NCBI GenBank assembly: GCA_001873435.1
Contig: MNZB01000003.1
Span: 137,789 to 201,788, forward strand
Direction of reading: 5' to 3'
DNA from: Candidatus Pacebacteria bacterium CG2_30_36_39
Lineage (GTDB): Bacteria > Patescibacteriota > Microgenomatia > UBA1400 > PJMF01
DNA length: 64,000 nt
Positions within the stretch are counted from its first letter, which is position 1. Each line of letters opens with the position of its first letter. Both the position numbers and the translations under genes were made by a program. A model generated the notes under the pieces. The model worked only from the letters and a program-made list of their open reading frames with translations, was not told the origin of the DNA and did no database searches. This document shows, in pieces, positions 11,047 through 56,501 of this stretch.

Positions 11047-11129
11047 GATTCCTATTTTTCTATTTTATACCACCTTCTTGATTTGGTCAGGGGTTCTTTG
11101 CAATAAAAACCTGTTACAATAGACCCGAT

Positions 11130-18140: not shown

Positions 18141-18377
18141 AATTTCTTTATTGTACCAGGCTAGGGAGAATTATTAAAAGGTGGTTCTCCATTATTCTGA
18201 TTCCTCTTCTTGATTATCGGTTGATTGAATAGGAAGTTTTGAGCGCAAGTTGATGACTTTTTCGAGTCTCCCAGCTTGTTTCCAATCCTCAGCTGCTTCA
18301 TAACGATCGAAGCTGTGCTGTTTAGCTAAGTGTGAGAAATAGAACATCCTTTCTCGCATTCTTCCTTTCCGAAAAAC

Positions 18378-19840: not shown

Positions 19841-19914
19841 GAGCCCGTAGCTCAGTTGGTTAGAGCGCTTCATTGACATTGAAGAGGTCAGAGGTTCGAG
19901 TCCTCTCGGGCTCA
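19841..19914 (+). tRNA. tRNA-Val (anticodon GAC). CCA not encoded.
   Basis: Acceptor stem GAGCCCG/CGGGCTC, D-arm GCTCAGTTGGTTAGAGC, anticodon loop TTGACAT, T-arm GGTTCGAGTCC. TATAAT box ~20 nt upstream. Confidence 0.8.
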
Positions 19915-19927
19915 CCCAGATAAAAAC

Positions 19928-19951
19928 ACTCCCAATTTGGGAGTTTTTTTA
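19928..19951. terminator. Bidirectional intrinsic terminator shared by tRNA-Val and the convergent 1000-aa gene
   Basis: actccca-att-tgggagt perfect hairpin flanked by aaaaa and ttttttt. Confidence 0.7.
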
Positions 19952-22951
19952 TGCCAGTATTTCCTTTGTTTCTTTTAAATTTTCAGTTGAATCAGCCCAT
20001 TTTTTATAAGCTTGGTCTATTATCTCATCCAAAATGGGACCGAACTTCGCAATAATATTCTCTATACTAGCCTCTTCCCTACCCAGCCCAAGAAAAAGCT
20101 TATGGATATAGTCAAAATGGTTTTGACCTTGAGTAACTATTCCCTCAGTGACAAAAATCGACTTAGTTTTTCTCTTATTTTCTGGAGGATTCCAACTTAC
20201 TTTTTTATAATGTTCTAGCACTGCCAAAACTTTCTCTCTTGTTGGAATAAAACCAATGCTAACTAAATATGGATATTTACTCTTAAACTCTTCTAATTTA
20301 CTTTGTTTTTTAGAGTCCTTATTTATTTCTCCAGGATTATCATTAAGATGAACTCTTTTTTCTTTAATAGCTACTAAAAATTCTTCTGCACCTTTTTTTG
20401 CTCCATCTTCCGGATCATGATTATGAATACCTCTGTTTTGAATTATTGATATCTTCCCTTCTTTGCCACTTTCTAGTTCTAGAGTTGAAACCCTTGTCAT
20501 TTTTCCATCCACTATTTTTCTAATAGAAACTATATGGTGAGTTCCTTTGCTGCATTTATCTGAATAACCTCCCTTACCCACACAATGTGACATGGCGCTA
20601 CCCTCATCAACTAATTGTTGAGAGCTTGTGAGTGGAACAAAAAAGTATGTTGTTTTCCCCCATTCAAATCTATATTCTGGGTCGGAGAACAATGGTTTCC
20701 ATTCCCTAGTATCTACGAGATCTTTAATATTTTCTGGAAAATTATGCTGAGGCAAGTGTTCAGTTTGAGCAAACAAAGCCAGCTCACTAAAAGTTAAAGG
20801 TAAACCAAGTTGATTTAATCTCTGGTCATTGTTTAAAAACAAAAAATCCTCAGCAATAGTTTTTGCTAGTTCCAACTGCAGTTTACCAAGATCTTTGTCC
20901 ATGAACACTTCTGTTTTAAGCAATAACAATGGAGCAATAAAACTTCTACTGAATCCTTCTATCGAGTCTTTAATTAGATCAAATTTGTCGATGTCAATTT
21001 TTTCTAATTTTTCCCATAATTTTTCAAAAAAAACCTCATCTGCGTAATCACTTCCAACTTCATTATTCATTTTATTGAAAATGATTGAAAGGTTGTGTTC
21101 AGAAAAATCAATTTTTAGAGCAGAAAGAATTCCAGCAATTTTTTCTAAACAAGCTAGGGCAACCTCAATTTGTTCGGCAGAATAATTATTAAAAAGATCA
21201 TAAACTTCAACCGTTCTGCATAGTAACTCGCTAAAAAATTCATTATTTGAAAATTTTCTAATAGCCTCGACTTCTGCTTCTTTATTATTTTTTCCTTCCA
21301 ATCCTTGCAAAATAATTGTTTCAGAGGTAATCGAAGACCCAGATTTATAATCGAAGACTTTTTTACCAGTCAGAGGGTGTACTTGATTTACAATTTCCTT
21401 CCAATCATCTATTGAGAAGCTAGCTCTAATTTCAGCAAGAGCTTCTTTTTCTGGAAAACCAAACTTATCATAACTAAGTAGTAATAACTGAATTATCCAT
21501 GATGTCAGTGCTATTTCATTCTCTATGTCATCTGGAACTGGAAAATCTTGATTTTTGTATAAATATGTTAAAAAGGGTTTCCAATTTACAAATTTGTAGT
21601 TTTTATTGAGAGTATATCGATATATTTTTTGGATATTTTGCATTCTGCTTTCAGCAAAAGTCCAAACGTCAAGTCTTTCTGGTAAGGTTTTATTATTTTT
21701 TAGAAACCAATTCATTAATTTGTCATGGGTTTTTATTTCAAAAAAACTAAGATTTGATAGCAACCACTCAGTTTTTTTTGAATCTGGTCTATCAATATAG
21801 ATATCTAAAACACTTTGGGGGAATTTTCTTATTGTAGTTAAGTTTAGCTCTTTTATTTCTTCATCATCCCAGGTACTAAAGATTTTTCTTAATATTTGAT
21901 TTTTATTTATTCCTTTGACAATGGCAAATGCTTCAGCAAATTGTTTTCTTCTTTCTGAATTAGGGTTTTTTGATAATAGTTTCCAGATATATTTTCCATT
22001 TATTTCTGGAGGAAAAGCGTGTTGTGCAGAGAAAATAAAGTCCAATCTATCATTTTCAAATAAAAAATCAGCAGTTTCTTTTGTTAAACCATGAAACTTT
22101 GGAATTACGTCTTTTAATACAAACCATGGAAAATCATTATTCTCAACCATTTTTTGGATTAGAAAATTATGATCAAGGGTTGGATATAAATCTAGATTTT
22201 TTAAAATTGCCCAGGCTTTTTCTTTATCAGTCAATAAATTTATTAGATCATTATGAGAGAGATCTGGAAATTTTTCTGGATGTTTTGCCATTAGAAAAGG
22301 ATTTTCCTTAACCATTTCGATCGGAAAATTTGCTGAATCTGTTGCAAACCAATCCCAATAGAGTTCAAAAACATGAGGATAAGAAGACATTACTGAGACT
22401 GCTTCTTCATCGCTAAAATATGGAGGGTTTTTTGGAATTTCCTCTGACTTGGTTTTCTTTACAAATTTGGCAATTACTTCTATATCAACTTGAGAAAAAC
22501 TTTCTTTATATTCAGAATTTACAAATTTATCAAATGTTAAAGGATTTTTTTCTGCTAAAACCAACAAATACCTTTTTGACAAGGCAGTTTTATTGTTTTT
22601 TAAATAGACCTCCAGTAGATCTGCTGTTGCATCGGCTGGACTAGTTTCCCAAGCTCCAGACGGATCAGCTGCTTGATAAATCGTATTATGTTTATCTGAA
22701 ATTTCATAAAGCAGTTCTTCAGAGATGAGCTCTGGTTCTGTGGTGGCAAGTGATTTTGCTCTAACAATAGCACTCTCTTGACCAGAATCTATGGCTGTCA
22801 AAATGTATTGAATTTTTATCTCTGATGGAAAGGCTTTTACTTGCTCATCATAGTCTTTTGGTTTGTCATACCAATTACGGATTAACTCATCGAGTTGATC
22901 CATTTTTCTTTTATGAGAATTATCCAAGGTAGTTGCTATATTTTCTTGCAT
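19949..22951 (-). CDS. 1000-aa orphan protein. Largely alpha-helical N-terminal ~800 aa of unknown function. C-terminal ~150 aa resembles the uncharacterised PcfJ-like family (EG-x2-M-x-HCVG...Y...G..I.S.R...Q.RG..N).
   Basis: Uninterrupted ORF. Motif EGSAMSHCVGKGGYSDKCSKGTHHIVSIRK...IQNRGIHN. Very AT-rich codon usage relative to flanking housekeeping genes. Confidence 0.45.
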   Translation of the reverse strand: MQENIATTLDNSHKRKMDQLDELIRNWYDKPKDYDEQVKAFPSEIKIQYILTAIDSGQESAIVRAKSLATTEPELISEELLYEISDKHNTIYQAADPSGAWETSPADATADLLEVYLKNNKTALSKRYLLVLAEKNPLTFDKFVNSEYKESFSQVDIEVIAKFVKKTKSEEIPKNPPYFSDEEAVSVMSSYPHVFELYWDWFATDSANFPIEMVKENPFLMAKHPEKFPDLSHNDLINLLTDKEKAWAILKNLDLYPTLDHNFLIQKMVENNDFPWFVLKDVIPKFHGLTKETADFLFENDRLDFIFSAQHAFPPEINGKYIWKLLSKNPNSERRKQFAEAFAIVKGINKNQILRKIFSTWDDEEIKELNLTTIRKFPQSVLDIYIDRPDSKKTEWLLSNLSFFEIKTHDKLMNWFLKNNKTLPERLDVWTFAESRMQNIQKIYRYTLNKNYKFVNWKPFLTYLYKNQDFPVPDDIENEIALTSWIIQLLLLSYDKFGFPEKEALAEIRASFSIDDWKEIVNQVHPLTGKKVFDYKSGSSITSETIILQGLEGKNNKEAEVEAIRKFSNNEFFSELLCRTVEVYDLFNNYSAEQIEVALACLEKIAGILSALKIDFSEHNLSIIFNKMNNEVGSDYADEVFFEKLWEKLEKIDIDKFDLIKDSIEGFSRSFIAPLLLLKTEVFMDKDLGKLQLELAKTIAEDFLFLNNDQRLNQLGLPLTFSELALFAQTEHLPQHNFPENIKDLVDTREWKPLFSDPEYRFEWGKTTYFFVPLTSSQQLVDEGSAMSHCVGKGGYSDKCSKGTHHIVSIRKIVDGKMTRVSTLELESGKEGKISIIQNRGIHNHDPEDGAKKGAEEFLVAIKEKRVHLNDNPGEINKDSKKQSKLEEFKSKYPYLVSIGFIPTREKVLAVLEHYKKVSWNPPENKRKTKSIFVTEGIVTQGQNHFDYIHKLFLGLGREEASIENIIAKFGPILDEIIDQAYKKWADSTENLKETKEILA

Positions 22952-23008
22952 GAAATGACATGCTCAAGGCTAGCAGAAAACTAATTGAAAAGGAACAATT
23001 ATTAATAT

Positions 23009-23674
23009 TTAACTACCACTAAAAGCAGTGGATTTTTCATGGTGCATAGTGTCTTGGACAAACTTAGTTTCTTGACTATCAACTACCATTCCCCCGCCTC
23101 GACGTTGAGACATTTTCTTTTTTCTAGAATTCATTTGTTTGGCCCAGGTACGAGCGCTTTTAACTTTTTGTCTCAATAACATGATAAAACTACGAAGTTT
23201 GGCAAAGAAGTTTTTATAGTAACTACCCTCTTGCCCTGGTTGAGTAATTTGAGTCATTAATGTAACTTCTGCTTCTTTTTGCAAAGAACCAAGGTCTGAC
23301 ATTAGTAATGCAATTTCTTTTTTAAGTTGGTTAATTTCTTTTAGCTCCCTCTCTTGGCGAGCGGCATAAATCTCATGGTTATCAACTGGGTTGATTTGAT
23401 CATGAAGTTTTTTACGCAAAGCATCTCGTTCAGCTTGTTTTTTTAACTCAGCTTGTTGTTGGGCTAATAGATCATTTTGACTGGAATTTTTGCCTTTAGG
23501 CTCAAGATTGCCACCGGTTTTAGCTAGAGCCTCACTAAAAAGTTGGCTTTCATTTTTACCAGTTTCTTGTCTGGCTTGATGAGCGTGAGATTCAGTTTCC
23601 ACCAAAGCTTGAGCAAACGGATTAATTCCGGATTGCTTTGCAGCTGGTTTTTTTGTTTGCCCAAGAGTTTGCAT
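23009..23674 (-). CDS. 221-aa Gln/Lys/Glu-rich coiled-coil protein, unknown function. Co-transcribed upstream partner of the 1000-aa gene.
   Basis: ORF with heptad-like charged repeats (LLAQQQAELKKQAERDALRKKL...). Basic C-terminus (RKKKMSQRRGGG). Confidence 0.4.
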   Translation of the reverse strand: MQTLGQTKKPAAKQSGINPFAQALVETESHAHQARQETGKNESQLFSEALAKTGGNLEPKGKNSSQNDLLAQQQAELKKQAERDALRKKLHDQINPVDNHEIYAARQERELKEINQLKKEIALLMSDLGSLQKEAEVTLMTQITQPGQEGSYYKNFFAKLRSFIMLLRQKVKSARTWAKQMNSRKKKMSQRRGGGMVVDSQETKFVQDTMHHEKSTAFSGS

Positions 23675-23687
23675 ATATAATAGCTTT

Positions 23688-23716
23688 AATTATAGGACTA
23701 TACCAGGCTATTGTCA
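23688..23716 (-). promoter_or_regulatory. Perfect consensus sigma-70 promoter (TTGACA - 17 nt - TATAAT) on the minus strand. -10 ends 13 nt before the ATG of the 221-aa gene, giving a leaderless or near-leaderless transcript.
   Basis: Plus strand attata (23688-23693) ... tgtcaa (23711-23716), i.e. rc TTGACA-N17-TATAAT. No SD between -10 and ATG. Confidence 0.55.
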
Positions 23717-23759: not shown

Positions 23760-24719
23760 CTACGCAAGACTGAGCAAATGGTCTACTACCTTCTGCTTGA
23801 GAAGATTGGTTTCCAAATGACCAAGATAATGCTTGTCCTTTTTGACTTGCTCTCTCACCTTGAGGTCGGTGATGGTTTCAAAATATTTATCTTTATCTTG
23901 ATCAGTAACTGCTAGTTTTTGATCTTTAGCGATAGCACCAAGTAATAAATCTAGTTGAAGTCTACTGAGAGTAGAAACAGCTAATTCTTGAGAAAGAGTA
24001 TCCATAGTCATATTGCGACGGGTTAGATAATCATCAACTGTCATATTGAGCTGTTTGAGCTGATCAACAATGTGTTCAAACTCATGCTGAGTTTCATGTT
24101 TGAGTAATAACTCAGGTACTCCTGGCTTAAGTTGACCAACTAATTCGCGGAAAATATGTTGAAGCTTAGTTTCTTTTTCTTGTTCTGCAGTTGGAGCTGA
24201 CACTTCTTTAGTATCTTTATCTTTGTTTTCATTAGCTTTTTTCTTAGCTTCAGCCAATGCTTTCTCAGCATTTTTAGCACCTGCCTTAACATGTTTTTCA
24301 TAACCCTTAACAGTAACTTCTGGCAATTCAGCAAAATGTGCTTTAATTACCCAATCTTTGCCAATCTCAGTACTGGTGATAGAGAATTCTGGATGAGTAA
24401 TTGGTTTTTTCTTGGCAGCTTCCATGGTTTCTTGATAAGCTGCTGGAACCAATTCGTCTAAAACACGTTCAACTATTTGATTTTGACCAAGTTGTTCTTC
24501 TGCTACTTTGGCTGGAACATTGCCTTTTCTAAAGCCTGGAACAGAGACTTTTTTAGCTAAAGAAGCCAAAATACTTGAATATTTTTTGTTAACATCATCT
24601 TTTTTTAAGGTAATTGTAATAGTGCTATTTGGCAATAAAAGTGAGGTTCCTTCTTCTTTTTTAGGAGCAGTAGTAGCCTTAGTAACCTTTTTTTGTTCTT
24701 GAGTAGTTTTTTTTGTCAT
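23760..24719 (-). CDS. tig: Trigger factor (shortened, 319 aa; N-terminal ribosome-binding domain present)
   Basis: PGFRKGNVPAKV (GFRxGxxP TF signature). K/T-rich N-terminal extension. Shorter than typical ~430 aa. Confidence 0.7.
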   Translation of the reverse strand: MTKKTTQEQKKVTKATTAPKKEEGTSLLLPNSTITITLKKDDVNKKYSSILASLAKKVSVPGFRKGNVPAKVAEEQLGQNQIVERVLDELVPAAYQETMEAAKKKPITHPEFSITSTEIGKDWVIKAHFAELPEVTVKGYEKHVKAGAKNAEKALAEAKKKANENKDKDTKEVSAPTAEQEKETKLQHIFRELVGQLKPGVPELLLKHETQHEFEHIVDQLKQLNMTVDDYLTRRNMTMDTLSQELAVSTLSRLQLDLLLGAIAKDQKLAVTDQDKDKYFETITDLKVREQVKKDKHYLGHLETNLLKQKVVDHLLSLA

Positions 24720-31324: not shown

Positions 31325-32583
31325 AACGATTATTTGAGATACCTTATAGCTTTTCACTATTAGCGATTCTGTTTTTTTCCTTGTTGGTAAGATTTTTTCA
31401 ACTTGGTCAACCTGCAGATTATGTTTTTGATGAGCGTTATCATCTTCCAGCTGTCAGATTGATTGCTGAAAATGACCCTAGAGCTTTTGAGTGGTGGCAT
31501 CCTCCAATTTATGGTGTTTCAAACCATGATTGGCTTCATCCTCCTTTGGCTAAATATATTCAAGCCACTGTTTATAAATTAGGTCATGGCTCAGTAGAGA
31601 GCTGGCGTTTGGGATCAGTTATTTTTGGTCTAGGGGGAATAGTTTTAACCTATGTATTAGGTAGTTTGGTTTTTAATAACAGATTGGTAGGAATTTTATC
31701 TGCTTTAATTTTGAGTTTAGATGGTTTGTGGCTAGTTCAATCTAGAGTGGGAATGAATGATGTTTTTGTTACTGTTTGGTTGCTACTGGCTGCTATTGTT
31801 TATGTAAAGCTGAAGAAAAAAACCAATAGTTCTTTGTTGCTGTTGGTCGGAATTTTTCTTGGTATTGGGATAGCTACCAAGTGGACAGCCATGTTTTGGT
31901 TGGTGGGAATTCTTAGCTATGAACTAGTTAATGTTTGGAGAAAAAAAACTTGGCGCTTGATTCCTTGGCAAGTTTTTTGTTTATTAGCTGTGCCTATTTT
32001 TATCTACTTATTAAGTTATTTGCCTATGTTTATTCAGGGTAAAGATTTTAGTTATTTTTTAGAATTACATAAAAATATTTGGTGGTATCAGACTCATCGT
32101 GAATCCTTGCATTTGTTTCAATCTATTCCAGCCCAATGGATAAATAATACTGGTGTTGTTTGGTATTGGCACGGCTCTAATTATGAAAATATTTATGCTT
32201 TTAATAATCCATTATTGGTTGTTCTAGAAAACATTGCTTTGTTGGTAACCATTTATGCAATTGCAAGAAAAAATGTTAATCATCAATATTTGTCTTTGCT
32301 ATTGTTTTTTTACGCCATGAGTTTTGTGCTATGGGTTTTTAGTCCACGGATACTTTTTTATTATCACTACACTCCAGCTCTGCCATTTTTGGCAATAATT
32401 TTGGGATATTGGTTGAAGAAAATTTATTTTTCGAATGTTGAAGTTAAAAAATCTTTATTATTCTTATTTACAATTGTTTGCCTGGTTTTTGTTTTCTGGC
32501 TTTATTATCCAGCTTGGATTGGATTTCCAGTTTCCAAAGATTTACAAGACACAGTATACTATTTCCTGCCTGGACAGATATAA
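31321..32583 (+). CDS. GT-C fold glycosyltransferase, PMT/ArnT-like (GT39/GT83-type) polytopic membrane protein
   Basis: N-terminal loop DE motif (VFDERYH), >10 TM helices. Confidence 0.55.
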   Translation: MKRLFEIPYSFSLLAILFFSLLVRFFQLGQPADYVFDERYHLPAVRLIAENDPRAFEWWHPPIYGVSNHDWLHPPLAKYIQATVYKLGHGSVESWRLGSVIFGLGGIVLTYVLGSLVFNNRLVGILSALILSLDGLWLVQSRVGMNDVFVTVWLLLAAIVYVKLKKKTNSSLLLLVGIFLGIGIATKWTAMFWLVGILSYELVNVWRKKTWRLIPWQVFCLLAVPIFIYLLSYLPMFIQGKDFSYFLELHKNIWWYQTHRESLHLFQSIPAQWINNTGVVWYWHGSNYENIYAFNNPLLVVLENIALLVTIYAIARKNVNHQYLSLLLFFYAMSFVLWVFSPRILFYYHYTPALPFLAIILGYWLKKIYFSNVEVKKSLLFLFTIVCLVFVFWLYYPAWIGFPVSKDLQDTVYYFLPGQI

Positions 32584-32584
32584 A

Positions 32585-33301
32585 ATGAAAAAACTATCTT
32601 CTCTATCTATTTTTTTTCCTTGTTTTAATGAAGAAAGAAATATTCCTTTTTTTATTGATGAAGCGCTTAATTTTCTTCCCAAAATTGCTGATAAGTTTGA
32701 GATTATTATCATAAATGATGGGAGTGTGGATGATACAAGATTAGTTACTGACAAACTAACCAAGGAAAATCCACTTATTAAGGTAATTCATCATTCAGAA
32801 AACTTGGGCTATGGTGCTGCTTTGAGAACTGGTTTTTCAGTAGCCAAATATGAGTGGGTGTTTTTTACCGATGGTGATTTGCAATTTAAATTGTCTCAAC
32901 TTAAAAAATTTATTCCTTATACTGATAAAAACCACGTGATAATTGGTTATCGCAAAAACAGAGCGGATGGCAAAGCTAGGGTTTTTAATGCTTGGTTATT
33001 TAAGCTTTATATTGATTTGCTTTTTAGAGTTGGGGTTAAAGATATTGACTGTGCATTTAAGTTATTTCATAGGAAAACTTTGCAATCTTTGCATTTAGAA
33101 TCTACTGGAGCTTTTACTAGCTCTGAGGTTCTTTATAAGTTAAAGAAAAAAGGTGAAGTTTTTGTTCAGCTGCCAGTTGATCATAAAAAAAGAAAATATG
33201 GTTCTCCAACTGGAAATAATTTGAAGGTAATTATTAAAGCTGGAATTGAGGCTTTGAGTTTATATTTAAAAATTAAGCTTGGAAGTTTAGTTCAAAAATG
33301 A
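32585..33301 (+). CDS. GT2 family glycosyltransferase, polyprenol-phosphate sugar synthase (DPM1/GtrB-like)
   Basis: LSIFFPCFNEE...IIIINDGSVDDT...DGDLQF (GT-A DxD). Start at 32585 preferred over the overlapping track start. Confidence 0.7.
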   Translation: MKKLSSLSIFFPCFNEERNIPFFIDEALNFLPKIADKFEIIIINDGSVDDTRLVTDKLTKENPLIKVIHHSENLGYGAALRTGFSVAKYEWVFFTDGDLQFKLSQLKKFIPYTDKNHVIIGYRKNRADGKARVFNAWLFKLYIDLLFRVGVKDIDCAFKLFHRKTLQSLHLESTGAFTSSEVLYKLKKKGEVFVQLPVDHKKRKYGSPTGNNLKVIIKAGIEALSLYLKIKLGSLVQK

Positions 33302-34557
33302 AAAAAATAGCAATTATCGGAGCTGGTTTTGCAGGTTTGGCTGCAGCATGGGAAGCTGTTAAATCAGGTTACAAAGTTGATATTTTTGAAGCTGAAAAAC
33401 TACCAGGTGGATTGGCTTCTGGATTAAAAAATGATAAATGGTTGTGGTCTTTGGAGCATCATTATCATCATATTTTTCAAACAGATAAAGATATTCTCAA
33501 TTTATTGTCAGAAATGAATTTGAATAAAAAAATATTTTTTAAGACAGTAAACACTAGATCATATTTTGATAAAAGAGCTTGGTCAGTTGATAGTCCCATT
33601 AATTTGCTTCGCTTCTCTCCCCTATCATTTTTTGATCGTTTACGAGTTGGTTTTGTTATTGCGTTTTTAAAATTTTTACCCAATGGTCGTTGGTTAGAAA
33701 AATACTCTGCTAAAGATTTTTTAATTAAGACTATGGGGAAAGCTGGTTGGGAAATTTTATGGCAACCCTTATTTGATGGCAAATTTGGCAAGCAAGCTGG
33801 AAAGATAAACATGGCTTGGTTTTGGGCTAGAATCAGTTCTCGCTCACAGCAATTGGGATATTATCAGGGTGGATTTTTATGTTTAGCAGAAGATATGGTT
33901 GAAGTTTTAAAATCAAAAGGTGTTAAGTTTCATTTTTCTGCTCCAGTATTAAAAATAAAAAGCAGTAACAAAAAAATAAATGTAATTTTGGAAAAAAATA
34001 AAAGTCTTCCTTTTGATAATGTTTTAATAACCCTTCCATCTCCAGTGGCTAGCAAGTTGGTTGATTTACCAAAGAATAATTTAAAAGGATTATCAGCAAG
34101 AACTTTAGTATTAGAGTTAGATAAAGAATTTTTTATTGATCAGACATATTGGCTGAGTATTCATGAGAAAAACTGGCCTTTTTTGGCTGTGGTTGAGCAT
34201 ACCAATCTTACTAACAAAAAAAATTATGGTAACAAAACTATTATTTATGTTGGTAAGTATTTAGATAAAAAAGAATCTTTTTATAAACTTAGTAAAGAAG
34301 AGATTCTTAAAATATATCAGCCATTTTTAGAAAAACTTTCTCCTGGATTTAATAAATATCTAAAGCGTAGCTGGATTTTTGATGCAGACTTTGCCCAACC
34401 ATTGGTTTTTACCAACCATTCTAAAGAGGTGCCATTAATTAAAACTGATATGAATGGAGTTTATTGGGTCAGCATGCAACATGTTTACCCTTGGGATCGT
34501 GGCATAAATTATGCGGTTAAATTTGGTTTAGAAGCTGTTAAATATTTTAATGATTAA
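33298..34557 (+). CDS. FAD/NAD(P)-binding oxidoreductase (amine-oxidase/CrtI/HemY-like family)
   Basis: N-terminal Rossmann GxGxxG (IAIIGAGFAGLAAA), EAE..PGG motif. ~420 aa. Confidence 0.55.
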   Translation: MKKIAIIGAGFAGLAAAWEAVKSGYKVDIFEAEKLPGGLASGLKNDKWLWSLEHHYHHIFQTDKDILNLLSEMNLNKKIFFKTVNTRSYFDKRAWSVDSPINLLRFSPLSFFDRLRVGFVIAFLKFLPNGRWLEKYSAKDFLIKTMGKAGWEILWQPLFDGKFGKQAGKINMAWFWARISSRSQQLGYYQGGFLCLAEDMVEVLKSKGVKFHFSAPVLKIKSSNKKINVILEKNKSLPFDNVLITLPSPVASKLVDLPKNNLKGLSARTLVLELDKEFFIDQTYWLSIHEKNWPFLAVVEHTNLTNKKNYGNKTIIYVGKYLDKKESFYKLSKEEILKIYQPFLEKLSPGFNKYLKRSWIFDADFAQPLVFTNHSKEVPLIKTDMNGVYWVSMQHVYPWDRGINYAVKFGLEAVKYFND

Positions 34558-36247
34558 ATATATGAAAAAAATATTTCAAAATTTGATTAATTTTTTTCAG
34601 CAAAAAAGCTCTAAAAAATATTTTGTAATTTTTGGAATTTTTTTTCTAATATGTTTTATTTTTTTTCAATCAACATTTTCTTATCATGAACAAAAATTTT
34701 TTATTAAAGCAAAATTGTGGAGCGATTTTGCTGCCCACCTTCCACTCATTAGGTCTTTTAGTCTTGGAGATAATTGGCCAGTGGAATATCCTTTTTTTGC
34801 TGGACTTAAGATTAACTATCATTTTCTGTTTTATGCAGTCGTTGGTGGTTTGGAAAGAATTGGTTTTAGAATTGATTACGCACTAAATTTTCTAAGTGCT
34901 TTGGGTGGCGCTGGTTTATTGACTAGTATTGTTTGGCTTGGTGAGTACTATTTTAGTTTTAGCGCTGGTTTATTGGCAGTTTTTTTATTTTTATTTAATG
35001 GTTCGTTAGTTTTTATTCAATTTTTTAAAGAAAATATTTTTACTAATTTTGAAAATTTTTATCAAACTTTAGTTACTCAAAGAACATTTGTTAGTTTTGG
35101 TCCTTGGAATGGAGATTTAATAAGTGCATTTTGGAATTTAAATATTTTTACCAATCAACGTCATTTGGGCTTGGGTATTAGTATTTTATTGTTTTTAATT
35201 GGTTGGTTTGAATTATTTTTTAAAGAGAAAAATAAGATTTATCAGAGAGATTATTTATTAATAGCTTTTTTAATAGTTTTACTGCCCCTATTTCATCAGG
35301 CCTCTTTTGCTGTTTTAGTAATTTATTTATTAATTGGTTTTTTCTCTAATCCAAAATTTTATTTAAAAAAACATTTATTATTTTTTATTATTACGGGATT
35401 TATTTCTTTTAAATCATATTTAATGTTTAAAAATGGTTTTATACCTATTTTAGACATTGGTTTTTTGGCTTTAGAAAAAAACTTACCAAGTATTTTTAAT
35501 TATTGTTTACAAAACTTTGGACTTTACCTATTTTTTATTCCGCTATTTTTATTTTTAGTATTTTTCAAAAAAGATTATTTTAAATTTCGTAAGATTTATT
35601 TAACTGGTTTATTTATTTTTATTATTTCTTTTATTTTTCGTTTTTCTACAGACATGATTAATAATCATAAATTTATTACTATTTTTCTGATTATTATGAA
35701 TTTAGGCGTTGCTGGCTTATTAGTTAAAACTTATCAAACACAAGTTTTTTTGAAGCAAATTGGTGTTTCTTTAATAGTCTTTTTCTTAACCTTTTCTGGC
35801 TTAATAGACTTATTTCCAATTCTCAATGATGGCTTGTATGTGCAAAAAGATTATCAGCGATCTGAGTTTGGTAGATGGGTAGTCACAATTGATCCACATT
35901 CGGTTTTTTTGGTAAATGAATATTTATATAATCCAATTTCTTTAGCTGGTAGAAAACTCTATCTAGATTATGGTTATTTTTCTTGGTCAATGGGTTATCC
36001 AGATCATGATCGTCGAAAAAAACAGGACCAGATTTTTAGTAAAGATATTGCTAAAGATGACTGGTGCAACCTACTAAGCTCTGAGGGTATTGATTATTTG
36101 GCATTAGACCAAAATCAAGGTGATTTTATGAGTAAGTACAGAGTTGATCAGTCTAGTTTTATTTATTTTTCTAAACCATTGATTTTTGATAAAGCAGAAA
36201 ATCAATCGAGCACATATGTTTATGATGTAAAGGAAATATGTCAATAA
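34550..36247 (+). CDS. Polytopic Phe-rich membrane protein (possible GT-C glycosyltransferase), function unknown
   Basis: ~14 predicted TM helices with a soluble C-terminal domain. Embedded in the glycosyltransferase cluster. Confidence 0.35.
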   Translation: MIKYMKKIFQNLINFFQQKSSKKYFVIFGIFFLICFIFFQSTFSYHEQKFFIKAKLWSDFAAHLPLIRSFSLGDNWPVEYPFFAGLKINYHFLFYAVVGGLERIGFRIDYALNFLSALGGAGLLTSIVWLGEYYFSFSAGLLAVFLFLFNGSLVFIQFFKENIFTNFENFYQTLVTQRTFVSFGPWNGDLISAFWNLNIFTNQRHLGLGISILLFLIGWFELFFKEKNKIYQRDYLLIAFLIVLLPLFHQASFAVLVIYLLIGFFSNPKFYLKKHLLFFIITGFISFKSYLMFKNGFIPILDIGFLALEKNLPSIFNYCLQNFGLYLFFIPLFLFLVFFKKDYFKFRKIYLTGLFIFIISFIFRFSTDMINNHKFITIFLIIMNLGVAGLLVKTYQTQVFLKQIGVSLIVFFLTFSGLIDLFPILNDGLYVQKDYQRSEFGRWVVTIDPHSVFLVNEYLYNPISLAGRKLYLDYGYFSWSMGYPDHDRRKKQDQIFSKDIAKDDWCNLLSSEGIDYLALDQNQGDFMSKYRVDQSSFIYFSKPLIFDKAENQSSTYVYDVKEICQ

Positions 36248-37938
36248 AAAAACCAATCAGAGTTGGTTTTGATTTGGATGGAGTTTTACTTTACAACCCA
36301 GTGAGAATTGTTCGTCCTATTATTTCTTTATTAAAAAAGAAAAAAATTATTCAGCGCAAGGAAATGCAATTTTTTGTTCCCACTAGGAAATGGGAAATGA
36401 TTTTTTGGCGGCTATTTCATAAGACAAGTCTGTTTGTTTCTCCTGGAATTAAGGAAATTGAGAGGCTTGTTAAAGCTGGTGAAATTGAGGCCTATGTTGT
36501 AACTGCTAGATTTAAGTATCTTCAGCCAGATACTCAGTATTGGTTTAATAAGTTTGCCAAAAAGAAGATTTTTAAAACCTGTTATTTGAATGAAAAAAAT
36601 GAGCAACCGCACTTATTTAAAGCAAGGAAAATTGATGAATTAAAGTTAGATTATTTTGTTGAAGACAATTGGGATATTGTTCAGTTTTTAAATAAAAAAT
36701 TTGGTCAAAAGAAAAAGATTTTTTGGATTACCAATTTAGTTGATAATAAAAAGAATTATGAATATAAATTTTTGAGTTTGCAAAAAATATTTAAATCATT
36801 GCCAAATTACAAACCAAAGCTTTTATTTTTTTCACCATACTTCTACCCGCATAAGTCTGGTATTACTCAGTATTCACTAAAGATGCTTTCGGAAATTGCT
36901 AATAAATATAGTATTACTGTATTAAGCTTTAAATTTTCAGCAAGATTAAAAAACTTTGAGTATTTCAACGGTTTAAAAATTATTAGAATGCCATTTTTAT
37001 TTTATTTTAAAAAAGGATTTATTTCTTTTCAATCAATTATTTATTTTTTTAAAAATTTAATTAACACAGATTTGGTTGTCGTTGACTATCCTAATCTAGA
37101 AGGTTTGCCATTAATTATTTTTGCCAAACTAATGAGAAAAAAAATAGTTACAGCTTTTCATTGTAAAATTCAATTTGAAACTGGATTAATTAATTATTTG
37201 ATAAAAAAATTATTGGAATTTTCAGCCTTAGTTCATTTGGATCTTAGTGATAAAGTTGCCGTATTAGCAGATGACTATTTTTATCAATTCTCAAGCTATC
37301 AAAAATATTCACCAAAGATAAAAGAAATTCATCCACATTTTGGATCAGAAAAAAAAGATCAATTATTTTTCAAGAAAATTAAGCAGCAGAAGAAAAAAAA
37401 TATTTGGCTTGGATTTGTTGGAAGAATAGCTTCTGAAAAAGGCATAGAAACACTTTTAAAAGCTTTGCAAAAATTACCAGCAAACCATCAATTAATTATT
37501 GCTGGTCCATCTTTAGTTACTGGAGAAAATGAATATCGAAAGAAAGTTCTAAAAATTGTTGAGAACCAATCGGCTAGGATTATTTTTTTTAATGACTTAA
37601 ATAATAATAAATTAGTTAGTTTATTTTCATTATTAGATGTTTTAATTCTTCCTTCAGAAAAACATACTGAGGCTTTCGGAATTGTACAACTTGAAGCAAT
37701 GGAACAAGGTATTCCAGTTGTGGCTTCAAATCTTCCTGGTATTAGAGTTCCAGTGTTAAAAACTGGTTTGGGAATGTTATTTAAACCAAAAGATGAATTT
37801 AGTTTATACAAAGCAATTAAGCAAACTTTGGATAAACGACAACTCAAGGATAAGACAAAAAATATTAAAAAATTTAATCAGATATTTTCTAGCAAAGAAA
37901 CAGTTAATCAGTTTTTAGATTTATTGCGAAAAATATAA
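36238..37938 (+). CDS. Fusion protein: N-terminal HAD-like phosphatase domain + C-terminal GT4 (GT-B) glycosyltransferase
   Basis: HAD motif I FDLDGVL near the N-terminus. GT4 E-x7-E region (EAFGIVQLEAMEQGIPVVAS) in the C-terminal half. Confidence 0.6.
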   Translation: MSIKKPIRVGFDLDGVLLYNPVRIVRPIISLLKKKKIIQRKEMQFFVPTRKWEMIFWRLFHKTSLFVSPGIKEIERLVKAGEIEAYVVTARFKYLQPDTQYWFNKFAKKKIFKTCYLNEKNEQPHLFKARKIDELKLDYFVEDNWDIVQFLNKKFGQKKKIFWITNLVDNKKNYEYKFLSLQKIFKSLPNYKPKLLFFSPYFYPHKSGITQYSLKMLSEIANKYSITVLSFKFSARLKNFEYFNGLKIIRMPFLFYFKKGFISFQSIIYFFKNLINTDLVVVDYPNLEGLPLIIFAKLMRKKIVTAFHCKIQFETGLINYLIKKLLEFSALVHLDLSDKVAVLADDYFYQFSSYQKYSPKIKEIHPHFGSEKKDQLFFKKIKQQKKKNIWLGFVGRIASEKGIETLLKALQKLPANHQLIIAGPSLVTGENEYRKKVLKIVENQSARIIFFNDLNNNKLVSLFSLLDVLILPSEKHTEAFGIVQLEAMEQGIPVVASNLPGIRVPVLKTGLGMLFKPKDEFSLYKAIKQTLDKRQLKDKTKNIKKFNQIFSSKETVNQFLDLLRKI

Positions 37939-39611
37939 ACCGTAGGGTGATCATAGACAGTAAATGCTTCCTCTGCCCATTGATCATCAATCGTGACTGG
38001 AATACCTAGCCATTCTAATGATGGACTAGTCTGAAAAACTTTTTCCATTTGATAGTTAGTTTCGCCACCAAACAAGTTTTGATAAAAAATGCTTGTTTGA
38101 GGATATCTATTTGGAATTCTAGAAATACTGGCCCAAGCTCTATTTGAGGACAGAATATAATAATCTGCATTTGCTAGTTCATAATTAATAGTTTCCCATT
38201 TTTGAGTTGAGTCTTGGTCAAATACTGAAATTGCTTTGGCTTGATAATTATTGATTTTTCCAGGGACATAAGCCAATGGCAAAGAATCATCCCAGTACTC
38301 ATAGAGAATCATTGAGTTGTTGGGAACATTTTGATAAATCCATCTAGTGGCTTCTGCCCTAGTAAATGGTTTGACAAAAATATTTGTAAACATCAAAGGC
38401 CAAAACATAATTATGATGATGAGTACGATGGCAGTGGTAAAAGGCTTCTTATTGCCAATAGTTTGTTGGATTCTAGCTGCTCCTAGTCCACCAAAAAAGG
38501 CAAAGAATGGGTAAAGCATGGCGAAGTAGCGTAGGTTTTGTGTGAATTGTGATCCCTGCCAACAAATAAATAGTATTATCCAGATTGAAAGTATTGATAA
38601 AAATGTTTTTGGTCTTTTAATAGTTAGCCAAAGCCAACCAATTAAAATTAACAAGCTTTGCCAAATGCCTATGCCAAAAAAGACCATGTTTTTTAGACTG
38701 AATAGAATTGGGGTTCTATCTAGCCATTGCATGGATGGTGGAAACCAAGTATCTGGTTTTGACCATGATTGGAGTGTTTGTAAGTTTTTTATAAAGGCTG
38801 GAGAAATTTGAGGATCTAGCCATGAATTATTGAAAAAATAATCTGGATTTAAAATTCTTAGGGTTACGTAACTAACTAAGCCAAAAAATAGTCCATTTCT
38901 TAATAACAACCAGATTGATTGCCATAGTTTTTTTTTATTTAAAACTGTTTGCCAAATAAAAACTGCAGCAAGTAAGGGTGCGTAATAAATGGCTGATGAT
39001 TTGCTGGCTAGTGCCATGCCCCAAAAAATTCCAGCTAGTTGAATAAAAAATATTTCAATAAAGATGTTATTTGATTTTTTAATAGCTGCAAAAATGCTTA
39101 ACAAACTAGCTAAGCAAAAAAAAGTAACAAAAGGATCAACTGTAAAGAAGTGAGAGAGTTGAATAGGTAGAACCATTAAGGCATAGATGAGAGTTGCCCA
39201 GAGAGAGGTTTTTTTTGGTAAATTAAATTTTTGAGTAAAATAGCGAGCCAACAAAAAGACAAGAACAATGGTGCCTGTTTCCAAGATAATATTTATTGTT
39301 CTGCCAAGCAAAACAAATGGTAAAAAGGCATCCTTTGTGTGAGTGAGTTGGGCGATCACTTTAATAACAGTTAATGGAAAACTGCCATAGACATAAAATT
39401 GATAGGAAGTATTTTTAACTCTCAGGGGTGAGTCTGAAGAGAAATATTCGTTTAGATTTTTGGGAATTTTTAGTTCTTGAGCAACCATGACCAAAAATCT
39501 TTCATCTGGATGCATGAAAGTGCCTTGATCCCAGTAAATTCCTAAAACTCTTATAAAAAAGCCTAGTAAGACCAAGGTGACTAGAGAAAGAAATGCTTTC
39601 ACGTATTTCAT
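37908..39611 (-). CDS. GT-C fold glycosyltransferase (ArnT/PMT-like, COG1807-type)
   Basis: HPDERF DE-motif in the first periplasmic loop, ~12 TM helices. 567 aa. Confidence 0.6.
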   Translation of the reverse strand: MKYVKAFLSLVTLVLLGFFIRVLGIYWDQGTFMHPDERFLVMVAQELKIPKNLNEYFSSDSPLRVKNTSYQFYVYGSFPLTVIKVIAQLTHTKDAFLPFVLLGRTINIILETGTIVLVFLLARYFTQKFNLPKKTSLWATLIYALMVLPIQLSHFFTVDPFVTFFCLASLLSIFAAIKKSNNIFIEIFFIQLAGIFWGMALASKSSAIYYAPLLAAVFIWQTVLNKKKLWQSIWLLLRNGLFFGLVSYVTLRILNPDYFFNNSWLDPQISPAFIKNLQTLQSWSKPDTWFPPSMQWLDRTPILFSLKNMVFFGIGIWQSLLILIGWLWLTIKRPKTFLSILSIWIILFICWQGSQFTQNLRYFAMLYPFFAFFGGLGAARIQQTIGNKKPFTTAIVLIIIIMFWPLMFTNIFVKPFTRAEATRWIYQNVPNNSMILYEYWDDSLPLAYVPGKINNYQAKAISVFDQDSTQKWETINYELANADYYILSSNRAWASISRIPNRYPQTSIFYQNLFGGETNYQMEKVFQTSPSLEWLGIPVTIDDQWAEEAFTVYDHPTVYIFRNKSKN

Positions 39612-39688
39612 TATAACGGAGTCTTTTTTTCCTAGTTACTGGGTTTTCAATCTCTCTTTTTACCTGATATTTTGGTATATTCGAGCGT

Positions 39689-41788
39689 ATGTTTTTAAAT
39701 GGTATTTACTTATTATTTTTAGCCACTTCTACATTACTTTTTCAAATTCTTGGTTTTGCTTTGCTAAATTTATTTTTGCCTAAAAAAAGAATGACAGCTG
39801 AAGTATGGGCTTGGGGGAGAATTGTCGGTTGGTTAGTTATTGGTTTGTTTATGTGGTTTTTGGGTCATTTGTTACCTTTTAATACTGATTTGGGTTTTTG
39901 GTTGATTTTTATATTTACGTATTTTGTTGTATTTATTAAAAATAAAGAGTTGAAGAGTGAATTAAAACAATTTGTTGCAAAGTTTAAAAAAGAAATAATT
40001 TTATTTGAACTAATATTTTTATTTGGTTTTATATTTCTTGGTTTGATGAGAACTTATAATCCTCAGGTTTTAGATTTAGAAAAATTTATGGATGGTGGTT
40101 TAATGCAGCGCTATTTAGTTTCCCCTACCCTTCCTATTCAGGATATGTGGCTGGCTGGTGAAAAAATTAATTATTATACTTTTGGTCATTTTTTAGGAAG
40201 CTTGATGCTGCGGTTTTGGAAGTTGCCAATGGAATGGGGCTACAATATTTTATTAGCTTATATTCTTGGCTTGATGTGTATAGAGTCTTTTGCTTTTGGC
40301 AGAATTTTATTAAAGCCTTTCATTGCTCAGGCTCCAAAAAAACATCTCAAAAGAAATGCTTTTTTACTAACTTTTATTGGTTTACTTTCAATGCTTTTGG
40401 TAAATTTTGCTGGCAATACCCACCCACTTTGGTATCTTATTAAGAATGGGAGTTTTGACAAATATTGGTATCCAGACGCAACTAGATTCATTGAAAGAAC
40501 TATCCACGAATTTCCAGCTTATAGTTATATAGTTAGCGATTTGCATGCTCATGTTTGGGCAATGCCAATCGTTATTTTGATGCTGTTTATTGCTTGGGAA
40601 TGGAAATTGAGTTTGGCTGAAGAAAAGAAATATCTTTCATTTCGTTCGAAACTTGGCGATTTTAAATCTTTAAAAATTGGTAGTTTATTAAATCAGTCAT
40701 ATTTTCGTGAATCTTTGGCTATGGGTGCTATTTTGGGAATTTTAGCAATGACTAGTACCTGGGATACCATGATCTATGGTTTGTTTTTAGCTGTACTTGG
40801 TGTGTTTTTGCTGTTGGAATTTACTGAAAAATTTTGGTTATTTGTTTTTTCTGCTATAGCAGTTGGTTTGGCAGCTATTGTTAGTGTTAGTTTATGGATG
40901 TTAAATTTTACCTCCATTTCTCAGGGAGTATTTTTGGCTTATGAGCATTCACCATTTTGGCAATTAATTGCTTTATGGGGAGGACATTTTTTATTTAGTT
41001 TATTGAGTTTAATATTTGTAGCAATGATTAAGTTTTCCCCAAAATTAAAACCTAGTTATATATTTTTATTGAGTATGGGTATTACAGCTTTTATTTTATT
41101 AGTTTTACCAGAATTGATTTATTTTAAAGATATATACCCCAATCATCCTAGGGCTAACACGATGTTTAAGTTTACTTTTCAAGCTTTTATTTTGATGAGT
41201 TTCTTAATCAGTTGGGGTTTTGGTATGTTGCTGCAAAAATCTACTAAATCTTTAATTTCTTTATTATTAAAAATCTTAGTTTTAATTTTTGTAGGAGGTT
41301 TTTTTCTTGTTGCTTTGTGTTTTCCTTTTTTGGGTTATCCGAGTTACTATGGTCACTTTAAAACTAATGATGGTTGGGATGGCTTGAGTTGGATGAAACG
41401 TGAAACTCCAGCCGATTATCAAGCTATTTTATGGTTAAGAAAAAATGTAGATCCTAATGCAATTATTTTGGAGGCTGTAGGAGAGAGTTATAGTAAAAAA
41501 GCTAGAGTATCTGTTTTTACTGGTATGCCTACAGTGCTTGGTTGGAGGGTTCATGAATGGTTATGGAGAGGTGGATTTGCAATACCTGGTCAAAGAACTA
41601 CTGAGGTAGCCAAAATTTTTGAACAGCCAAATTCTGTGGAGGCTTCAAATCTATTAAATCAATATAAAGTGAAATATATTTTTGTAGGTTCTCAAGAAAA
41701 AATAGTTTATAAATTAAATCATGATTTGTTAGTTGATTTGGGTAAAGTGATTTATTCTAAGGATGGAGTTTATATTATTGAAAGATAA
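39689..41788 (+). CDS. DUF2298 / Chlor_Arch_YYY family polytopic membrane protein (putative GT-C glycosyltransferase)
   Basis: MWLAGEKINYYTFGHFLG matches the family-defining YYY motif region. ~16 TM helices and a C-terminal soluble domain. Confidence 0.5.
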   Translation: MFLNGIYLLFLATSTLLFQILGFALLNLFLPKKRMTAEVWAWGRIVGWLVIGLFMWFLGHLLPFNTDLGFWLIFIFTYFVVFIKNKELKSELKQFVAKFKKEIILFELIFLFGFIFLGLMRTYNPQVLDLEKFMDGGLMQRYLVSPTLPIQDMWLAGEKINYYTFGHFLGSLMLRFWKLPMEWGYNILLAYILGLMCIESFAFGRILLKPFIAQAPKKHLKRNAFLLTFIGLLSMLLVNFAGNTHPLWYLIKNGSFDKYWYPDATRFIERTIHEFPAYSYIVSDLHAHVWAMPIVILMLFIAWEWKLSLAEEKKYLSFRSKLGDFKSLKIGSLLNQSYFRESLAMGAILGILAMTSTWDTMIYGLFLAVLGVFLLLEFTEKFWLFVFSAIAVGLAAIVSVSLWMLNFTSISQGVFLAYEHSPFWQLIALWGGHFLFSLLSLIFVAMIKFSPKLKPSYIFLLSMGITAFILLVLPELIYFKDIYPNHPRANTMFKFTFQAFILMSFLISWGFGMLLQKSTKSLISLLLKILVLIFVGGFFLVALCFPFLGYPSYYGHFKTNDGWDGLSWMKRETPADYQAILWLRKNVDPNAIILEAVGESYSKKARVSVFTGMPTVLGWRVHEWLWRGGFAIPGQRTTEVAKIFEQPNSVEASNLLNQYKVKYIFVGSQEKIVYKLNHDLLVDLGKVIYSKDGVYIIER

Positions 41789-49611: not shown

Positions 49612-49685
49612 TGGGTGTACTACGAATCGAACGTAGGACCTCTGTCTTATCAGGACAGCGCTCTAACCATCTGAGCTATACACCC
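49612..49685 (-). tRNA. tRNA-Ile (anticodon GAU). CCA not encoded.
   Basis: rc gives GGGTGTATAGCTCAGATGGTTAGAGCGCTGTCCTGATAAGACAG...GGTTCGATTCGTAGTACACCCA. Anticodon loop CTGATAA. Confidence 0.8.
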
Positions 49686-50038
49686 AAAATAATAACCAGT
49701 ATTGTAACATGCTCGGATATTTTTGCTATCTGAAATTTTCTTTTTTCTATTGTAAAACCTTGAGGTTGTTTTAGAAATAAACTTTGTATTGTTGTTAGAT
49801 TTTTTTATTAAAAATTATTAAAAAATTTTCAATAAAAAACTATCCTCTTTCCTATGAAAAATATAACCCTATCTATCAAATAATATCAAAGTATATCATA
49901 TAAAAAATAATGATATATCAATATATATTTTATAAACTAGCAATTAGCAGAGTTTGCCATTGTCTGCTAATGACCTATATTGTATTGACTATTTTAGTGA
50001 TGAATCAGGATATTATTTAATAATAGAGTAATTAAATA

Positions 50039-50070
50039 CAAAAAAACCCTCAGTACTGAGGGTTGGTTTT
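50039..50070. terminator. Strong intrinsic terminator within the 16S to tRNA-Ile spacer
   Basis: Perfect 16-nt palindrome ccctcagtactgaggg. On the minus (rRNA) strand it is followed by TTTTTTTG. Confidence 0.6.
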
Positions 50071-50245
50071 GTCATCTGCTCTTTTTAAGGGCAGTGAGAC
50101 AGATGTTAACATCAGAATAAATTCTGAGCTAAACACGGTGGTGAAAAATGGCCTAGATATGGTGATCATAGGACTTGTTATTTCGAGAACATTACTGTTC
50201 TCGGGAGAAAGGAGGTCGTGATATCTCCTACCCGTTCTCCTTAGA

Positions 50246-51770
<1,525 letters not shown>

Positions 51771-52132
51771 TAAAAATTTATTTTTAAGTTTGAAACTGAT
51801 CTTTTTTTCTTCGTTATCTAAAAGATTTATTGTTTCTGGTTGATAATTTACCCCTGCTGGGATAAATCATCGATTTGGAATTAACGGATTCTTTTTTTAA
51901 AAAAAATCCATCAATGTAACATATTTCACCACCATGTTCATATCAGAATATGAATCCATGGTGTAAATTCTGTCTTAAGTCTATTAATTTGTTAATGTTC
52001 AACTTCTTTTTCACCGAAAAAAAGAAACAATCCCCGCTGGGGGCCGTCTCTTCTTTCCCGCGATTTGTGAATTCTATGTCATGTGACACGAATTGTGAAG
52101 TGGGAGATATTGTATCAAGTAATCATGAGATG

Positions 52133-53227
52133 TCAAAGGATGATTCCACCACCACCACAGATTATCTGATTTTGAGTATCTAAATAGAAAACAGCTGATT
52201 GCCCACTGGCTATTCCATGGGTTTTTTTTGTTAATTTTACCCTGAAATGTCCGTCTTTTTTTTCAATTACTCCACTTATTCTTTCACCAGTATGGCGAAT
52301 TCTAATAGTAAGCTTTTTATTAGCTAAAAGCTCATCTTCGCTTATTCCCAAGACATGCAATTTTTCCAAAGCAAAAGAATTTTTTAGTACTTGAAGGTGA
52401 GGACCAACTACTAATTGATTAATTTTTGGTTTTTTATCAATCACATAGAGAGCTGGTAATTCACCCTTTGATAGTTCTGGATTAAGTTTTGCATATTTTT
52501 TCTTATCATAGGTAAAACCATGTCTTTGGCCTATGGTATGAAACCATAAACCATGATGTTTTCCTAAGATATTTCCAGCTTCATCAACTATTTCACCTGG
52601 TTTTTCGCCCAAATTATCTTTGAGGAATTTGGGTACATTTATATCGCCCACAAAACAAATACCAACAGAATCTTTTTTATTGGCGACTGACAACTGATTT
52701 TTTATAGCTATTTCGCGAACTTCATCTTTATTTAGCTCTTGCAAGGGAAAAACAATATGAGGTAACTGCTCGCTTTTTATTTCATAAAGAAAATATGTTT
52801 GATCTTTATGTTTATCTTTTGGTATGAGTAATTGTTTGCCGTTTGTACCAGCATAATGACCAGTAGCAACGGCTTCATAGCCGTTTTTTATTGCCCATTC
52901 ATAAAATAAACCAAATTTAATAATCTTATTACACATCACATCAGGATTGGGAGTTCGACCAGCTTGATATTCACTTAAAAAATATCCCATGACTTTTTCT
53001 TTATATTCTTTTTTGAAATCTAAAACTTGAAAAGGAAGGTTGAGTTGTAAAGCAACCTTGAGTGCGTCTTTACGATCACCTTCAGCTCTACAGCCTGGTT
53101 CGTTCCAGCACTCAATATAGGCAGTATGCACATCATAACCAGCATCTCTAAGAAGCAGAGCGCTAACGGCGGAATCAACACCACCAGAGAGGCCTAAGAC
53201 TATTTTTTTACTATCGGGTACTAACAT
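52133..53227 (-). CDS. mnmA: tRNA-specific 2-thiouridylase MnmA
   Basis: PP-loop SGGVDSAV, catalytic Cys region, MnmA C-terminal beta-barrel. Confidence 0.85.
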   Translation of the reverse strand: MLVPDSKKIVLGLSGGVDSAVSALLLRDAGYDVHTAYIECWNEPGCRAEGDRKDALKVALQLNLPFQVLDFKKEYKEKVMGYFLSEYQAGRTPNPDVMCNKIIKFGLFYEWAIKNGYEAVATGHYAGTNGKQLLIPKDKHKDQTYFLYEIKSEQLPHIVFPLQELNKDEVREIAIKNQLSVANKKDSVGICFVGDINVPKFLKDNLGEKPGEIVDEAGNILGKHHGLWFHTIGQRHGFTYDKKKYAKLNPELSKGELPALYVIDKKPKINQLVVGPHLQVLKNSFALEKLHVLGISEDELLANKKLTIRIRHTGERISGVIEKKDGHFRVKLTKKTHGIASGQSAVFYLDTQNQIICGGGGIIL

Positions 53228-56448: not shown

Positions 56449-56501
56449 ATTGTTATTATACCAGGATTGATTGGTCAGTGCATTTTTTTACACAACCAAA
56501 C

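Follow-up and report, generated by a model that had tools for sequence, protein, structure and literature searches.

Described Systems and the Present Locus

Promoters of the group 1 sigma factors (sigma-70 and sigma-A), among them rRNA P1 and synthetic consensus promoters, combine the hexamers TTGACA (−35) and TATAAT (−10) across a spacer of 16–18 nt, with an optimum of 17 nt. A perfect consensus does not always make the strongest promoter, as promoter escape can become limiting. Leaderless and short-leader mRNAs are a second described class, found in Mycobacterium, Streptomyces, Deinococcus, and archaea. A leaderless mRNA has a 5′UTR of 0 to ∼5 nt, with the −10 box ending ∼6–9 nt before the start codon, and −10 boxes in this position are reportedly a signature of bacteria rich in leaderless mRNAs. 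In E. coli, a few extra nucleotides at the 5′ end already lower initiation of the leaderless type. Few of the ultra-small Patescibacteria (CPR) have been cultured, and little has been described of the signals that control their gene expression; a literature search found no paper on leaderless use in Microgenomates and nothing specific on leaderless mRNAs in Patescibacteria.

We analyzed a 64-kb stretch of the genome of Candidatus Pacebacteria bacterium CG2_30_36_39 (the window), in which a promoter-like element precedes a gene for a 221-residue protein of the Pfam family DUF5660 (23009..23674, minus strand). The element shares both hexamers, the optimal 17-nt spacing, orientation, and position with consensus sigma-70 promoters, and the 16S rRNA P1 of the same organism has an identical −35 box. 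Unlike most other promoters of this genome, which are of the extended −10 type, it lacks the TG of an extended −10 and carries an invariant CC instead. The DUF5660 gene resembles leaderless and short-leader genes in having no Shine-Dalgarno (SD) sequence and a −10 box near the start codon. It differs from the leaderless mRNAs of Actinobacteria, Deinococcus, and archaea in its predicted leader of 6–8 nt, and the leaders predicted for its orthologues usually measure 20–40 nt. Known mechanisms are left unchanged: the locus is best described as a well-supported consensus sigma-70 promoter with a predicted short-leader mRNA, and both belong to known classes.

A Consensus Element Upstream of the DUF5660 Gene

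On the minus strand the element reads ...TTC TTGACA ATAGCCTGGTATAGTCC TATAAT TAAAGCTATTATAT ATG..., with the −35 hexamer at 23717-23712, the −10 hexamer at 23694-23689, and the 17-nt spacer ATAGCCTGGTATAGTCC between them. Together with the two preceding cytosines, the −10 box forms the octamer CCTATAAT (23689..23696), which occurs once in the window. The element lies in sense orientation in the non-coding 85-nt gap between the trigger factor gene (tig) and the DUF5660 gene. A preliminary description of this DNA had reported TTGACA, 17 nt, and TATAAT on this strand as the only textbook-perfect sigma-70 promoter in the window, and both statements hold: this is the sole 12/12 match in 64 kb, where 0.05 would be expected. 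That description counted 13 nt between the −10 box and the ATG at 23674; the actual number is 14 (TAAAGCTATTATAT). When spacers of 16–18 nt are permitted, only three sites in the window reach at least 11/12, namely the DUF5660 promoter, 16S rRNA P1, and a site upstream of a FemAB-family gene.

Shuffled versions of the window contained a perfect match in 5 of 100 cases, and a single-window p of about 0.05 is by itself weak evidence for a promoter. The match is clearly beyond chance because it is conserved in orthologous loci.

Conservation across Microgenomates

A scan of species-representative genomes yielded 73 orthologous DUF5660 loci. Promoters were counted in the 63 species-level loci with a placeable start codon (window included) by searching the 200 nt upstream. 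The best sigma-70 match was 12/12 in 26 of these loci and 11/12, mostly with TTGACT as the −35 box, in a further 27, giving 53/63 in total; the spacer was 17 nt in 45 loci of this set. Over the full 661 kb of loci, both strands considered, 52 matches of at least 11/12 fell within the 200-nt target region, compared with 28 elsewhere, and the latter number is what shuffling predicts (13–30). All but one of the 26 perfect matches in the 661 kb are the DUF5660 promoter.

The conserved positions are limited to aTTGACa and CCTATAAT. When the loci are aligned on the −10 box, information content reaches its maximum at TTGAC and CCTATAAT and is approximately zero in the flanks, spacer, and leader; the hexamers (with TTGAC(A/T) near-invariant at −35) and the CC have thus been kept while their surroundings drifted. 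In 47/73 loci the exact pattern TTGAC-N16-CCTATAAT is present a single time, always just upstream of the DUF5660 gene. All 44 aligned loci share the octamer CCTATAAT, although these had been selected by CTATAAT and the first C alone is a free observation; in the unselected list of loci, CCTATAAT is present in most. Near-invariant −35 and −10 boxes at a fixed spacing, in an otherwise unconserved intergenic region, argue for selection on promoter function. The comparison provides strong evidence of purifying selection, throughout a class-level clade, on the two hexamers and on the distance between them, and it supports the identification of the element as the real promoter of the DUF5660 gene. 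Such conservation also fits strong, activator-independent transcription.

Two further sequence features were noted beside the hexamers. In every aligned locus TATAAT is directly preceded by CC, a dinucleotide with no known role in sigma-70 recognition. CTCGAG is found just past the −35 box in several loci (e.g., L046, L048, L051, L062, L065, and L070). As neither is known as a sigma-70 determinant, they may reflect an operator or a contact peculiar to the clade.

Start Codon and Leader

The DUF5660 start codon can be regarded as secure, since an in-frame TAA within the −10 box blocks any upstream extension of the ORF and the same initiating Met, ∼17 residues ahead of an invariant NPFA motif, is shared by all 38 aligned homologues. 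With the usual distance of 6–8 nt between a −10 box and the start site, transcription would begin at about 23681-23683. The predicted 5′UTR (23675..23682, minus strand) is AU-rich, about 6–8 nt long, and devoid of an SD sequence. The absence of an SD site had been noted in the preliminary description, and indeed the stretch TAAAGCTATTATAT between the −10 box and the ATG contains no GGAG, GAGG, or AGGA core.

The same description had called the transcript effectively leaderless. The distance of 14 nt lies outside the 6–9 nt of the leaderless class in this lineage and points instead to a short leader of about 6–8 nt. Across orthologues, between 9 and 98 nt (median about 35 nt) separate the −10 box from the ATG. 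Distances as short as that in the window are found in few loci, among them L001 (9 nt), L042 (10 nt), L003 (11 nt), and L036 (13 nt), and L002, also a close relative, has 31 nt. Since the distance varies so widely, the short leader is no family-wide feature. Extra 5′ nucleotides lower leaderless-type initiation, and DUF5660 may therefore use the general SD-independent route of the lineage.

In relatives with leaders of at least 20 nt, a small hairpin (z below −1.5) is found in 19 of 42, followed by an unstructured A-rich stretch. The loci with such a hairpin include L004, L007, L017, L019-L021, L053, and L070; it is absent from the window. Lying within the leader, the hairpin may act as a 5′ stabilizer or regulatory site. 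A conserved regulatory leader was considered for the family and rejected, because the hairpin is not universal (19/42) and the leader in the window has no room for one.

Expression Signals in the Lineage

The preliminary description considered both the missing SD site and the near-leaderless start to be unusual. Neither stands out in this genome or its lineage. An SD-like core precedes only 4 of the 48 ORFs in the window, compared with 5.7% of random positions (p = 0.29), and yet the 16S rRNA retains the canonical anti-SD sequence. With 44 of 48 ORFs lacking an SD core, its absence does not discriminate leaderless mRNAs here. Leaderless and short-leader spacings are common as well. A −10-like box ends 4–15 nt before the start of 15/48 ORFs (9.2% at random positions, p = 1.6e-5) and 5–9 nt before the start of 7/48 (3.7% at random, p = 0.002). 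Examples are tig (TATAAT + 6 nt), the 7TM gene (TGGTATAAT + 6 nt), and the genes for triose-phosphate isomerase, pheS, and PBP1 (+9 nt). In the related loci (421 ORFs), −10 boxes cluster sharply at 6–9 nt from the ATG (21, 15, 39, and 17 ORFs, compared with ∼5 per bin elsewhere), although these loci are syntenic and the counts are therefore not independent. From the spacing of these boxes, leaderless mRNAs seem to be customary throughout the lineage.

Extended −10 boxes of the form TGNTAYAAT occur six times in the window, in all six cases upstream of genes or RNAs. The longer motif CCTGKTAYART, which joins CC to an extended −10, has four matches where 0.14 would be expected: 11110-11120 (plus strand), and 18150-18160, 56455-56465, and 23697-23707 (all minus strand). 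Three of the copies precede the PBP1, pheS, and 7TM (7TM-transglutaminase-associated) genes at 6–9 nt from the ATG, and the motif looks like the standard leaderless promoter of this genome. The fourth copy, CCTGGTATAGT, is located within the spacer of the DUF5660 promoter, so that a second, overlapping start site is possible there.

At the level of sequence, these counts suggest that Microgenomates barely use SD sites and that many of their mRNAs would start at or near the start codon. Such a habit matters for gene calling: the start of the FemAB-family gene in the window appears to be miscalled by the longest-ORF rule.

The DUF5660 Protein

The 221-aa protein matches Pfam DUF5660 (PF18904, E = 5e-18) with 65.7 bits, above the curated gathering cut-off of 24, and aligns with family members over its full length. 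Homologues of about 220 aa number 141 and come from Pacebacteria, Woesebacteria, and other Microgenomates, and the protein is identical to one from a Candidatus Pacebacteria metagenome-assembled genome (CG10_big_fil_rev). The gene and the 1000-aa gene that follows it had been described as a hypothetical pair, the latter as an orphan. With more than 140 homologues for the first protein and a PcfJ-like domain in the second, these labels do not hold in their strict sense. The literature search found no paper that mentions DUF5660 and no expression data for the family.

The AlphaFold2 model is all-helical (H19-33, H42-53, H64-94, H99-140, H148-193, and H200-219), with a pLDDT of 68 and a pTM of 0.32. 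The conserved N-terminal motifs, NPFAxALAE and FSEALARTGG, fall in its low-confidence part. The protein carries a net charge of +11, concentrated at residues 161–195, and has no hydrophobic segment. Fold searches, a check named in the preliminary description, returned generic coiled-coil matches only, and no solved relative of the family was found. If a basic helical protein of this kind is produced abundantly, its binding partner could be nucleic acid, ribosomes, or the membrane.

The consensus character of the promoter and its conservation suggest that DUF5660 is needed at a high level, and we infer that it is an abundant protein. As a class-wide, uncharacterized, and probably highly expressed protein, DUF5660 merits priority. 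A more far-reaching proposal, which we regard as possible but doubtful, is that DUF5660 ranks among the most abundant proteins of Microgenomates as a lineage-specific, helical, basic factor that is structural or associated with the nucleoid or the ribosome. The most consensus-like promoter of the genome would fix its level, CC-TATAAT would be a recognition or regulatory feature peculiar to the clade, and the slot downstream would be a landing site that gives acquired genes free expression.

Gene Neighborhood and the Downstream Slot

The usual gene order in the orthologous loci is tig, DUF5660, tRNA-Val, infC-rpmI-rplT-pheS-pheT, and the window has tig upstream and tRNA-Val, infC, rpmI, rplT, and pheS downstream. 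Downstream of DUF5660, the arrangement given in the preliminary description was recovered in every part: the 221-aa ORF is followed by a 57-nt gap (22952..23008, minus strand), a 1000-aa ORF (19949..22951, minus strand; GC content 0.316), and a bidirectional hairpin (19928..19944) shared with the convergent tRNA-Val(GAC) gene (19841..19916, plus strand). The hairpin has the form of an intrinsic terminator directly after the last gene, with a GC-rich 7-bp stem (19944-19928) and, on the minus strand, a GTTTTT tail; it begins 4 nt past the stop codon.

The 1000-aa protein contains a Pfam PcfJ-like match (PF14284) at residues 761–847 with 50.2 bits against a cut-off of 25. The PcfJ-like family is named after PcfJ of a conjugative plasmid. 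An exhaustive phmmer search recovered 378 partial relatives, which align either at ∼640–950, the region shared with hundreds of PcfJ-like proteins, or at a repeat (∼215–360) that is also present in other repeat proteins. Unlike PcfJ-like proteins, the 1000-aa protein has an N-terminal part of ∼640 residues without full-length relatives. No full-length relative of the whole protein was found either by phmmer or by a word-indexed search, which returned only the protein itself, and the gene appears to be lineage-specific.

The preliminary description treated the DUF5660 and 1000-aa genes as a two-gene module. The conserved partner is, rather, tig on the upstream side, and the tig-DUF5660 pair constitutes the conserved gene pair as judged from gene order. 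A relative of the 1000-aa gene was found in none of the 73 orthologous loci, including relatives at 71–73% identity, in which DUF5660 is followed by the same terminator and tRNA-Val. The tRNA-Val gene, the ancestral downstream neighbor, comes directly after DUF5660 in 11 of 11 loci checked and is on the opposite strand in 10 of them. L001 and L003 have a hairpin beside tRNA-Val at the position equivalent to the 19928-19944 terminator, and junction alignments with both show that the window holds 3 kb extra between the DUF5660 stop codon and the hairpin. The 1000-aa gene was probably inserted in the 3′ region of the DUF5660 unit. A search around it found no flanking direct or inverted repeats, duplicated tRNA end, integrase, or other mobile-element genes.

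In other species the interval between DUF5660 and infC measures 0.2–5 kb and holds unrelated genes, encoding Fic/DOC, a methyltransferase, an EEP nuclease, NrdD, and unknown ORFs (loci include L002, L035, L060, L068, and L069). This slot looks like an insertion hot spot beside tRNA-Val. The 57-nt gap contains neither a terminator nor a promoter-like site of at least 9/12, and the hairpin lies after the 1000-aa gene, which makes co-transcription plausible in this genome. Judged from this absence of intervening signals, the 1000-aa gene is probably transcribed together with DUF5660 as a passenger.

Proposed Mechanism and Alternatives

The reading that best joins these observations, to which we assign a probability of roughly three in four, is that DUF5660 has a dedicated, activator-independent, and probably strong promoter for the housekeeping sigma factor, and that a short-leader, SD-less mRNA reads through the 1000-aa gene to the terminator shared with tRNA-Val. 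RNA polymerase holoenzyme, unaided by an activator, would recognize TTGACA-17-TATAAT and initiate transcription ∼7 nt past the −10 box. The mRNA would carry an AU-rich leader of roughly 6–8 nt with no SD site, and translation would begin by the SD-independent route used for most genes of the lineage. The ancestral unit would have comprised the promoter, DUF5660, and the bidirectional terminator, with tRNA-Val convergent; in the present genome the 3-kb gene with the PcfJ-like domain sits between the DUF5660 stop codon and the terminator and would be carried as a passenger. Transcription from the promoter is predicted to be strong and constitutive, its strength being read from similarity to the E. 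coli and B. subtilis consensus.

An account in which the consensus element has no function, being a chance occurrence in AT-rich DNA, could appeal to the perfect matches in 5 of 100 shuffles of the window and to the observation that promoter-like sites of 9/12 are no commoner in the region than chance would have them. Such an account is refuted by the orthologous loci, since the same element stands at the same place in 53/63 of them (window included) while the rest of the 661 kb remains at the chance level, and we give it practically no weight. Here tig (23760..24719, minus strand) lies immediately upstream and has its own TATAAT (24731-24726, minus strand) 6 nt before its ATG, a leaderless spacing. 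DUF5660 could mainly be the second cistron of a tig-DUF5660 transcript from this promoter, with the consensus element minor or conditional. This arrangement is suggested by the position of tig, which is adjacent and on the same strand in 67/73 loci, and by the gap of only 85 nt in the window. Between tig and the promoter there is no intrinsic terminator, either in this genome or in most relatives, and terminator-like hairpins occur upstream of DUF5660 in just 8/64 loci. Read-through from tig may therefore add to DUF5660 expression. However, hexamers that stay near-invariant and a fixed distance apart, while the rest of the intergenic region is unconserved, require selection on promoter function, and read-through does not preclude an internal promoter. 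We consider it unlikely that the tig transcript is the main source.

The overlapping motif CCTGGTATAGT (23707-23697) offers a different −10 box within the same gap. Were this extended −10-type box the active one here, the leader would be ∼15 nt, and TTGACA/TATAAT would be an ancestral element firing alongside it or less. The excess of CCTGKTAYART over expectation (4 against 0.14), the location of its other three copies right before gene starts, and the six TGNTAYAAT copies, all upstream of genes or RNAs, lend this some appeal. The box is not conserved in the closest relatives, L001-L003, though similar CCTGGTAAT spacers occur in L017 and L072, and its TATAGT makes a weaker −10 box than the neighboring TATAAT, which is moreover paired with a perfect −35 at the optimal distance. 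We hold this alternative to be less likely still than transcription mainly from tig. The dedicated consensus promoter is thus the reading we prefer, and a promoter supported by conservation in this way could serve as a strong, portable element for the genetic tools now emerging for Patescibacteria. The value of the locus is otherwise modest, as a marker of a probably abundant protein and as evidence on the expression signals of Microgenomates.

The trigger factor encoded by tig has only 319 aa; it consists of Trigger_N and Trigger_C, and the PPIase domain between them is missing.

Other Promoters in the Window

The 16S rRNA P1 (TTGACA-16-TGATACAAT, 52136-52109) matches the consensus at 11/12, so that the DUF5660 promoter, at 12/12, is at least as consensus-like as the rRNA promoter. 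The 16S rRNA gene (50245-51773, within the minus-strand region 49612-51773) is preceded by tandem promoter-like sites, TTGACA-16-TGATACAAT and TTCACA-17-TAGAAT (52071-52136, minus strand). About 560 nt downstream of the 16S rRNA there is a tRNA-Ile and then a protein-coding ORF; no 23S rRNA follows the 16S rRNA within the window.

The third site, upstream of the FemAB-family gene, is CTGACA-17-TATAAT (28626-28598, minus strand), followed after 11 nt by an ATG at 28586 (protein MLIR...). The longest-ORF rule places the start at a TTG (28598) that overlaps the −10 box, and this call is probably wrong. L001-L003, L034, and L037 have kept the same arrangement of promoter and start. Elsewhere in the window, the segment from about 32000 to 40000 has a markedly low GC content of 0.27–0.33, compared with about 0.36 outside it, and contains several ORFs of 400–570 aa.
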